From assembly GCA_051294375.1 (NCBI GenBank), contig CM119267.1, positions 7,482,683-7,546,682 on the forward strand: DNA of 64,000 bases, read 5' to 3'. The notes under the pieces were generated by a model. That model was not told where the DNA came from, did no database searches, and saw only the letters and a program-made list of their open reading frames with translations. Source of the DNA: Paraspadella gotoi (taxonomy: Eukaryota; Animalia; Chaetognatha). The translations under genes were made by a program, and so were the position numbers. Shown in pieces: positions 1,901 to 63,989 of this stretch; the first letter of the stretch is position 1, and each line of letters opens with the position of its first letter.

Positions 1901-4407
1901 TTACCTTCCAGAGAAGGCCGGCTGACGGAGCAGCGCCTTTGCAGAATACTTGATGTTGAGGAAAGTGCCGATTTCGTCGATGGCGGCGATGGCTTCCTCG
2001 ATCATTTCCCGAGTGTGGGCGGCCGAGAGACAAAAACGCGCCCGCGACTCGATGAGGGGCGTCGCGGGAAATCCCACCACGACCACGCCTGTTTCGTGAC
2101 AACAGTTCACAGTCAGAGCTCACAACGATAACTGCTTCAACCCGTCTCCCTCGTTACCGATTTTCCGTCTCAGCATCTCACGGCTGAAATAACAGATTTT
2201 GGCCGGCATGAAGACGAGCAGTGGCACGACGGGCGAGTTTTCGTTCCCGTAGAGGATAAAACCCCGACGATGAAGTTCGCGCCGAAAGTAACGAGTGTTC
2301 GACGCCAATTGGGCGATGCGGCGCGCTCCCTCTCCATCACCTAAAATTGTGAGTTACAAAAAAATTGGCTATGAATATATGAAAAACAGCAGCCCACTGC
2401 CAAGTCGGCCTGTGTCCGGCTAAAATAACTCAAACCTTCTTTTCCCATAATAATGCGCATCGAAGTTATGATTTGTTGAGCGACCGGAGCGGACATCGAA
2501 GTTGCGTACGTACAACTGAATAAAAAAAATATGAACAAACGTAAGTCACTATGCAAAAAGTATGCATTATATAACAAAAAGCCAATGACACTCGGCTCAC
2601 CTATGCGAATTGAGTCTCAAATAATTAATGAGGCTTTTCTTGCCGCCGATGTAGCCACCAGCGCTGCCGAAGCTCTTGGTGAAGGTTCCCATCATAACGT
2701 CGACGTCGTTGACGTCCAAACTGAAATAGTCGACGACGCCGCGACCTCGAAGAAAAATTAAGAGCGTTTCGACGATCAATTTCAATCGAGTGCTCAAGAC
2801 TCAAGTGAAGCTAAAATTATGGATAAGATACGGACTTTAAACGAATCCATCTTCTTGGCTACCTGTGGGCCCGAGGGCTCCAATGCTGTGAGCTTCATCC
2901 AGATACAAGTAAGCGCCATACTTCTTCTTCAGCCGAATCACCTCCGGGAGATTAACAATGGACCCTTCCATGCTGTAAATACCTAGGAAGGGGAAATATT
3001 TGAAAAAAGAGAGGGAAGACGACGGAAGAATTCGGAGGTAGGTAAGATTCGAAATTGTATTCTTCTCTGGACTCCCTTTCCACTGGAGAGAGGAGACGTA
3101 CCGATGTGAAAAATCTAGTTACCTTCGACGATGAGCAGTATCTTTTTCCAGGGGCGATGAGTCCTCGGTTGTCCATAGCAAATCGCGTCGCGAAGTTTTT
3201 CTTCCAAATCTTTCATGTCGTTGTGCTGAAAAAAATAAGTGGGAAAACGGAAAGAATCAAAACACGATGAAGCAAAGAACGAAAGAATGGAGCGAAAAAC
3301 AAATAGTAAATGAAGAAAAATCGATAGATCGAACCAGAAACGAAACAAAATTCGAACCTTAAAAACTCTGATGGAGGCTTGGGACAAACGCGCCCCCAGG
3401 ACGAGGGATGAGTGATTGTACTGATCGGAAAGAATGAGCGAGCCTTTGCCAACCAGAGCGGGAATGTTCATGGAATTTGTGGCGAAACCCATCCCGAAGG
3501 TCAGCGCCGCCTCGGTTCCCAAAAACTCAGCGACAAGAGCCTCCAACTCTTGGTGGATGACCATCGAGCCGAGCTCTCGACGAGAAGACGCCACGCCACA
3601 GCCATAGACCAAGCCGGCGTTGCGCGCTGCGTCTGCGCAAGGCCCGCTGCTCTCCGCGAATCCCAGATAGTTGTAAGAACCTTTTGGAGGAGATTGTGAT
3701 TTAAAACAATCGAATACGAATTAAGTTCCGTCACTTCCGATCGACACTTATGCAGGACAAACAACGTTTGTTTTAAGAATTTGGTTTTAACGTAAAAAAA
3801 ATGGATCTCGTACCCAGGTTAAGTACTTTTGTCTTTGAGCCAAGCTGCTGAAACGTCCAGCCTGCGTCGCGAGTCTCTCGGTCGAGAAGTTCTACTTCTG
3901 CTCCGGGAACGCTGCGTTAAAGGGTTGATTTTCATAATACGCCAAGAGTCACATTTCGAAAATCATTTGATTTCTACCTGCATATGGGTCGATTCCAGCA
4001 GTCGCGAACGCGGCGATACAAGTTGCGAGTGTAAAAGCTTTCGAAGCTCTGATAGAGAGGGACCCAACCTTGTACAGAAGAAAATATACTTTACTAAAAT
4101 TGGAGAAACTAATCTTGTTCAACTTTAAGAAATCACTTTTACCTTTTCCTTGGCGCGTTTCCTTGGCGGAATGACTGATTTCAAAGCCGTACTTTCGCAA
4201 CCAGTCTCGAAAGTAGCCACAGACGACGAGGACCCCGTAGCCAACGATGGTAACGATGGAGGCGAGGAGGGGAGTCTCTTCGAAGGACTCGTTCAACAGA
4301 CTCGAGGCGTTCGCCTCCTCCGCCCTTTCACGTCGCCGGTCAGGGGGCGCGCCCACCTCCTCTATGCTGCTCATGCTCTCGTCGTGCTCCCCACTTTTCT
4401 CCGTCAT
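1901..4407 (-). CDS. SPTLC2: Serine palmitoyltransferase 2 (LCB2 subunit), multi-exon
   Basis: Spliced GT-AG exons give [59 protein letters not shown] and the PLP-lysine motif [13 protein letters not shown], ending [24 protein letters not shown] at 4407, TAA at 1901-1903. Confidence 0.95.
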
Positions 4408-5178
4408 CACGAATTCACGTTTTAGAAAAAAAAATGTAAAATTAATACTAGGCTCCGATTTAACTAATAAAGGCACAGGGAACTGAAGATGTCCGACGCG
4501 GGAGCGGCGGTTCAAAACCGAACCGATTTATTATTGAAATTTACTAGATCACAGGTGCGAGTGACGAAAAAATATTTGCTGAGGTTTCTATAGATGATGT
4601 GGATTTTATACTTTTCGTTGTTTTTCCGACTTTATGAAATAAATCAATAAAGATCAAAAATAAAAAAATAAAAAAATTTAAATGCTCATATAATTAATAA
4701 AATAAAACATTAAAAAATATATTTAAATACTGTCTAAACTGGTTTTTAATCTTAAAACGTTTCATTTTCTCTAAAATTGAATAAAATAATTCTTATTTTC
4801 AGTTATGAAATAATAAAATGTTTTGGAGTTCATGAAAAAAAGAATACCGGCTCTTTCTCTTTTACCGTATACAAAAATTATAACGAAAAATAAAAATTCC
4901 ACCACTCAAGAAGAAAACTGTTTTATGCCATGGCAAAGACCGAAGCGACTACCAAGAATCAGCAGCCCGCTCGTAGCCCTGTAAAGAGAAACGTATGACA
5001 TATTGAACGAAAATTTAAAATATATACGTATATAATCGTGAAAAGATTGTCGATACAAAGGGAAGAAAACAAGAGCGATGAAAAATCATCGAAAACAATG
5101 AAAATAGAATGTTGACTAGAGCCACTTCCCCCCTTCTCCATTTTCCGCTGGAATTTATTTTTCTTGCCAGGAATGAGT

Positions 5179-63639: not shown

Positions 63640-63711
63640 AGCGAGAAGCGGTTAACTTGAAACAAAACAAAAAATTGGTTTTATCACAGCAACATGGGAA
63701 CATCAGAAACG

Positions 63712-63989
63712 TTAGCTGTTAACGTCAGAAGATTCTTCTTCCTCTCCCTCCTTTTCTCCGTTCAACTCTCTGAACACAAAGCTAATCTCGAAAAAATCCC
63801 CGGGCGCCGTAGCGTTCACGTATTTCGTGAATCTTTCTGTGTCTCTCTCGCGAAAGACCAACACCAATGCGTTGTGACGCGGTTTCATCGTCAACAGCGG
63901 CTCCTCGTCGTCGGCGGCTGCGTAGACGGTGGCGCCGCCGTGGCGTTCCGTGTCCCACGCGGCGTCGCCACCGACAAAGAGAGTCAAGT
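63712..63989 (-). CDS. OGFOD1: Last exon of prolyl 3-hydroxylase OGFOD1 (gene continues beyond the window)
   Basis: GGATVYAAADDEEPLLTMKPRHNALVLVFRERDTERFTKYVN matches the OGFOD1/Tpa1 C-terminal domain; acceptor ttttAG at 63990-63991. Confidence 0.8.

Follow-up and report, generated by a model that had tools for sequence, protein, structure and literature searches.

Twenty-one co-oriented genes over 62 kb of a likely chaetognath genome, probably a chain of spliced-leader-resolved operons

The window analysed here is a 64,000-nt stretch of contig CM119267.1 (assembly GCA_051294375.1, positions 7,482,683 to 7,546,682 of the forward strand), in which 21 of 21 genes, mostly unrelated to each other, are co-oriented on the minus strand over 62 kb in a unidirectional array that is open at both ends. 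In the reading that we favour, with somewhat better than even confidence, the genes are co-oriented because they likely form a head-to-tail chain of several operons whose precursors are resolved by addition of a spliced leader.

Statements on the literature refer to the parts of each source that were available to us. A spliced leader of 36 nt has been described from Spadella cephaloptera, as has an RPS14-PCNA operon, whose bacterial artificial chromosome (BAC) was remarked to contain other tightly clustered genes of the same orientation (PMC2481426). In Paraspadella gotoi 10,197 of the 21,072 genes are trans-spliced, so that about half carry no leader, and a 250-bp rule yielded 2,151 candidate operons comprising 18% of the genes, the longest with nine genes; chaetognaths are described as having no operon-specific leader (PMC12460157). 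Polycistronic transcription in an intron-rich animal, which the original prediction, made without knowledge of the phylum, had offered as new, was thus already documented in chaetognaths by these two papers. The mechanism being known, it is possibly the scale of the run that is unreported, 21 genes being more than twice the longest reported chaetognath operon. Strand runs were not analysed in the main text of PMC12460157 as available to us, which contains none of the words “strand”, “orientation”, “direction” or “head-to-tail”, and the available part of the F. enflata genome preprint (10.1101/2025.03.14.643333) does not treat the topic, with 0 occurrences of “operon”. A literature search, with most subscription papers outside its coverage, found neither a chaetognath strand-run analysis nor an animal directional cluster of this size.

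The one-strand array and its chance expectation

Gene models were built by coordinates after the entire minus strand had been read. Between 1901 and 64000 this strand carries 20 complete exon-intron models and the 3' end of a twenty-first gene truncated by the window edge (Table 1). The 20 models contain 89 introns (median 91 nt), with a GT donor in 86; the ends of the FOXRED2-like and EOGT-like genes are approximate because some splice sites there are weak picks. The curated Pfam cut-off was reached by 15 of the 21 genes, and five (the EOGT-like, FOXRED2-like and NOL11-like genes and two zinc-finger paralogs) have sub-cut-off matches only. Counted as reading frames, 30 of 149 minus-strand frames of at least 71 amino acids (aa) passed the cut-off. 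The gene names are putative assignments guided by Pfam, RPL35 being the sole gene checked by a tree.

For the plus strand, 289 stop-to-stop frames of at least 50 aa were scanned with Pfam, which returned eight weak matches and none at the cut-off. The plus-strand frames of at least 70 aa that lie mostly outside exons (n = 20) resemble translations of AT-rich or repeat DNA. A tRNA search of the window found none and an Rfam scan of the window gave nothing at the gathering score; two Rfam microRNA matches were rejected, as their scores were far below it. Gene spans from ATG to stop occupy 82% of 1901-64000, and the 13 kb of non-genic DNA holds strong splice sites without clear strand bias (13 acceptors and 4 donors on the minus strand, 7 and 14 on the plus strand). 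The claims that all genes lie on the minus strand and that no credible plus-strand gene is present are borne out by these models and scans, and by splicing in the minus direction at all 15 introns that were checked.

Spacers were measured from stop to ATG and include both untranslated regions (UTRs); true gaps between transcripts are therefore shorter. Their median is 522 nt, with 7 of 20 below 250 nt, 8 of 20 above 700 nt and 19 of 20 below 1 kb, and in 20 of 20 the sense strand is T-rich. The 938-nt spacer between the two GNAT paralogs is inflated, since 574 nt of it are an inverted-repeat element (37963-38536, with 28-nt terminal inverted repeats), which by its sequence looks like a non-autonomous DNA transposon. 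A stop-to-ATG rule of 250 nt, stricter than the published gap rule, links the genes across 7 of the 20 spacers, giving chains of 3, 3, 2 and 3 genes, and leaves 13 spacers unlinked.

A chance of 2^-17 had been put forward for the run. The arithmetic stands (7.6e-6), but the surprise does not, as the null was the wrong one: runs of 18 independent loci are expected 0.08 times per 21,072-gene genome under random orientation, and 0.62 times when 2,910 gene pairs are forced into the same orientation by the published candidate operons, the published chaetognath operon figures serving here as a stand-in. If genes less than 250, 450 or 700 nt apart are counted as one linked group, 11, 8 or 6 pairs stay free, with odds of 1 in 2048, 256 or 64. 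On the operon-corrected expectation and these odds the window alone is unusual but not decisive.

A second chaetognath region was available in the 158-kb Spadella BAC. According to its Table S5 all 14 of the 14 named non-transposon genes with a given strand lie on the plus strand over about 120 kb, in a run that crosses five gaps of more than 8 kb, and all four minus-strand rows are transposon proteins (PMC2481426). This count leaves out a tyrosine recombinase and transposon rows, one row is strandless and two rows may be one gene; furthermore, the table omits models without a SwissProt match, and the BAC was published because of its operon. In both long chaetognath regions inspected (2 of 2, both selected) there is no strand switch among host genes.

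Transcript-like contigs and the spliced leader

Contigs of run X1, which resembles a transcriptome, were compared with 13501-33500 of the window. Among the joints listed (21 more lay outside the listing), 13 of 15 and 6 of 6 were GT-AG on the minus strand, and the two non-canonical joints have sides of 23-24 nt. All 15 distinct canonical joints coincide with model introns, each on the minus strand. The first record, of 3373 nt and fully spliced, takes in RPL35 from exon 1 onwards, ORF255, the 818-nt spacer and the RRM gene up to its end, so that one contig crosses two spacers and spans three genes. The second covers rotatin down to 22997, and the predicted RPL35 acceptor (22969) lies 28 nt further on. 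By length arithmetic the third would extend about 670 nt beyond the upstream end of the MICAL-like coding region; on that arithmetic it would either start in the WDR48 3' UTR (collinear start 34046) or carry about 23 foreign bases at the strong acceptor 34024.

The taxonomic position of the window was determined with RPL35. When its second exon was used as query, Spadella cephaloptera was the nearest named animal (85% and 82%), other named animals reaching at most 74%. The tree had 41 rows (the window model, the relative's contig L001, 17 best matches, and 22 further named animals among the 120 listed) and grouped the window with both Spadella paralogs in a clade of 18 rows, supported at 100/99. 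On this one marker gene the window is likely from a chaetognath.

L001 carries an intronless RPL35 with 89% protein identity to the window model. Its first 23 nt are the 3' end of the published leader SL2.0 and lie 23 nt before the ATG (the leader falls within L001 1-46); these 23 leader nt are absent from the window sequence. Downstream of its RPL35, at 560-1480, the same contig is made up of short tandem repeats rich in A, about 900 nt in all. Among 12 loci of relatives only L001, a single message, was close, and none held a homolog of another window gene. In the window a U-rich AG at 22969, which lies 26 nt before the RPL35 ATG, is the predicted leader acceptor of this gene, and rotatin has a strong acceptor at 29219, 25 nt before its ATG. 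Further predicted acceptors lie, for example, at 63656, 56922, 55401, 52639, 48952 and 22378. The first seven letters of the leader have seven matches in the window, none of which extends as the published leader would in a leader RNA gene.

Features of the window

The individual features are given in Table 1 from the right edge to the left.

Table 1. Genes on the minus strand of the window and the largest spacer; spacers (stop to ATG) separate each gene from its right-hand neighbour.
Feature	Position	Strand	Spacer (nt)	Length (aa)	Evidence and remarks
OGFOD1-like, 3' end	63712..64000	-			Pfam Ofd1_CTDD; stop at 63712; cut by window edge
EXOSC1/CSL4-like	62892..63639	-	72	215	Pfam EXOSC1, ECR1_N
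MRG15-like	59984..62712	-	179	369	Pfam MRG, chromo-like
NOL11-like	57000..59027	-	956	600	Model; weak Nol11_C match, E 0.009, under cut-off
C2H2 zinc-finger gene 1	55460..56896	-	103	478	Pfam zf-C2H2_4; intronless
Zinc-finger gene 2	53372..55381	-	78	669	Model; DNA similarity to gene 3; intronless
Zinc-finger gene 3	51043..52611	-	760	522	Model; DNA similarity to gene 2; intronless
Largest spacer	48929..51042	.	2114		Between zinc-finger gene 3 and FOXRED2-like
FOXRED2-like flavoprotein	42750..48928	-		~667	Sub-cut-off Pyr_redox_3; 3' exons approximate
EOGT-like glycosyltransferase	39532..41875	-	~874	~547	Sub-cut-off Glyco_transf_61
GNAT acetyltransferase 1	38737..39320	-	211	166	Pfam Acetyltransf_1
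GNAT acetyltransferase 2	37222..37798	-	938	164	Pfam; model
WDR48-like	34170..36920	-	301	694	Pfam WD40, DUF3337
MICAL-like/EHBP1-type	29624..33377	-	792	1080	Pfam CH, bMERB; X1 record 3
Rotatin	23066..29193	-	430	1946	Pfam RTTN_N; both introns spliced in X1
RPL35	22462..22942	-	123	123	Pfam; model; tree
ORF255	21264..22365	-	96	255	Four exons; three introns spliced in X1
Multi-RRM and zinc-knuckle gene	18045..20445	-	818	426	Pfam; X1 RNA-like contig
Rab7	15529..17655	-	389	207	Pfam Ras
KIF15-like kinesin	8423..14913	-	615	~1294	Pfam Kinesin
GFO/IDH/MocA oxidoreductase (GFOD-like)	5179..7785	-	637	~410	Pfam; model
Serine palmitoyltransferase 2-like	1901..4407	-	771	531	Pfam Aminotran_1_2

The gene at 42750..48928 is taken by us to be FOXRED2-like, that at 39532..41875 to be EOGT-like, and the kinesin at 8423..14913 presumably belongs to the KIF15 subfamily. 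The frame of ORF255 is open solely after removal of its three X1-spliced introns; the protein has a basic N-terminus and hydrophobic stretches, and neither a Pfam family nor a database homolog was found for it. In these traits it may resemble TMEM70/186/223-type membrane proteins of mitochondria, and its exons could also be non-coding or part of a UTR.

If the run has an internal promoter, or conceals a small or non-coding gene, the largest spacer is the best candidate site. It holds a strong minus-strand acceptor at 50168 (within 49950-50800), and three more lie past the last gene at 1559, 1128 and 1044 (within 1000-1560); judged by their sequence, these four sites may belong to further short or non-coding minus-strand exons. 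The three tandem intronless zinc-finger genes (51043-56896) have an N-terminal segment of about 40 residues in common and are likely a lineage-specific family. Nested inverted-repeat elements occupy part of the large intron of the FOXRED2-like gene (45649-47296), and a 260-nt repeat is found in two of its introns in opposite orientation, 89% alike (46018-46275 and 48427-48688). Rotatin has just two introns and one coding exon of 5.6 kb (23066-28632), whereas the surrounding genes have introns every few hundred bases. A short upstream reading frame of 12 codons was noted on the minus strand at 62759-62795, in the spacer that separates EXOSC1 from MRG15.

Origin and meaning of the run

In animal operons a polycistronic precursor undergoes cleavage and polyadenylation behind each gene, and a capped leader is added to the gene that follows (PMC2776167, PMC7986045). 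If several such operons make up the run as a chain, each would be transcribed from one upstream promoter, and its precursor would be cut into single messages by cleavage and polyadenylation together with leader addition at U-rich AG sites close upstream of each start codon. Promoters would be expected in some of the longer spacers. Runs on one strand could then lengthen past single operons by a ratchet, in which genes without a promoter of their own could not be inverted and newcomers of the same direction, using the upstream transcription, would survive best. Arrays of co-oriented operons, one of the two possibilities named in the original prediction, fit well with the chaetognath phylum, the seven spacers below 250 nt and the RNA-like contig across two spacers.

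Operons resolved by a leader in chaetognaths resemble the window in the phylum, in the head-to-tail arrangement of unrelated housekeeping genes, in spacers ranging from tens of bases to a few hundred and in the 36-nt leader family found on the RPL35 of a relative. They differ from it in size, published gaps being below 250 bp and published operons holding at most nine genes, whereas the window has 21 genes and many stop-to-ATG gaps of 400-2100 nt. Polycistronic pre-mRNAs of unrelated genes are likewise resolved by leader trans-splicing in nematode and tunicate operons (PMC2776167, PMC7986045), with gaps of about 100 bp in C. elegans and of about 1 bp, in operons of up to seven genes, in Ciona (PMC7986045); a nine-gene operon is described in Oikopleura (PMC11067885).

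The acceptor sequences are no more than suggestive of leader addition. The best acceptor lies 10-35 nt before the ATG in 12 of 20 genes compared to 6.1 in shuffles (p 0.009, 100-nt window), and the combined per-gene shuffle test of acceptor strength gave p 0.002. Several points weigh against the reading as leader-resolved operons. The range of 10-35 nt was picked after seeing the data, and the position test varies with the window used (p 0.13 for 72 nt, 0.009 for 100 nt, 0.033 for 150 nt). Acceptors reaching the lower quartile of true acceptors were found in 6 of 20 genes compared to 5.0 in shuffles, and the upstream signal was no stronger than that over the 100 nt that follow the stop codons (p 0.14). 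Poly(A)-like hexamers were not enriched before the next gene (3.6/kb near, 2.8 far, and 7.5 on the other strand). No leader-like loose end was seen on the X1 contigs of the window, among 6 listed rows of 87 or in 3 of 3, and leader addition in the window is for this reason something that we infer; this check is neutral evidence, as at 96% likeness the contigs leave uncovered those 5' ends of genes that lie at 22871-22996 and above 29172. The RNA status of X1 is itself the guess of a tool, none of the runs listed being registered as RNA, though no record covering an intron was found at 96%; two other runs, X2 and X3, had next to no sequence words in common with the window. A contig that spans genes does not demonstrate a single molecule, and overlapping UTRs would look alike.

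The alternative that the majority of the genes are transcribed from promoters of their own, with operons confined to the tightest groups of two or three genes and the rest of the co-orientation a chance outcome in a gene-dense region selected for its extreme look, is in our judgement unlikely. Under the published operon fraction the 0.62 runs expected per genome would leave room for it, as would the odds of 1 in 64 once links below 700 nt are discounted, the short chains obtained by the 250-nt rule, and the X1 contigs of the window, on which no leader was seen. The co-orientation of all 14 named host genes of the Spadella BAC across five gaps of more than 8 kb speaks against it, with the reservation that this BAC was selected.

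Still less probable, in our view, is a single polycistronic unit of at least 21 genes, with its promoter beyond the right edge, in the manner of kinetoplastids and general to housekeeping regions of chaetognaths. Kinetoplastid units share with the window the long unidirectional array of unrelated genes, and leader trans-splicing is present in chaetognaths. In Leishmania, however, all genes lie in such units, without promoters of their own and with one leader on all mRNAs (10.1101/2023.11.23.568479), unlike the published chaetognath state with about half of the genes lacking a leader (PMC12460157). Cis-introns are almost absent from kinetoplastids (PMC8061765), whereas the window has 89, of which 15 were matched in X1. 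A single unit would be consistent with an array that keeps to one strand throughout 62 kb and is open at both ends, with the 19 spacers below 1 kb, with the X1 contig across the 818-nt spacer, with the third record, which by its length would reach some 670 nt past the MICAL-like ATG on the upstream side, and with the one-stranded Spadella BAC. It is opposed by the 2.1-kb spacer and the seven others above 700 nt, by the RRM gene, whose ATG lacks an acceptor-like site within 100 nt, and by the published share of genes lacking trans-splicing. The nine-gene maximum also opposes it (PMC12460157), as weak evidence, because a cut-off of 250 bp could not detect such a unit.

That the pattern is an artefact of the assembly or of missed plus-strand genes is very improbable given the genic share of 82%, the plus-strand frames described above and the X1 contigs, which track the assembly through gene borders, even if these contigs were compared with 13501-33500 only and the 13 kb outside genes may hide plus-strand genes that are short or non-coding and escape Pfam.

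Since operons and leader splicing are already known in arrow worms, the interest of a chain of leader-resolved operons of this length lies in its scale. In a strong form, which we hold to be quite improbable, housekeeping regions of chaetognaths would be kinetoplastid-like directional clusters of tens of unrelated, intron-bearing genes under one or very few promoters, leader-resolved and 60-120 kb long. Such units would be far longer than the animal operons found in the literature searched, and would have gone unnoticed owing to the 250-bp cut-off used to call operons. A weaker form, in which strand runs are well above the operon-corrected null whatever the number of promoters, we rate just short of an even call. 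If one-strand runs of at least 20 genes were common, chaetognaths would be an animal lineage partway to the directional gene clusters of kinetoplastids and dinoflagellates, with its introns kept. The growth of operons and the limits on their length would then become directly testable in two published chromosome-level chaetognath genomes, one of them with open-chromatin and long-read data.

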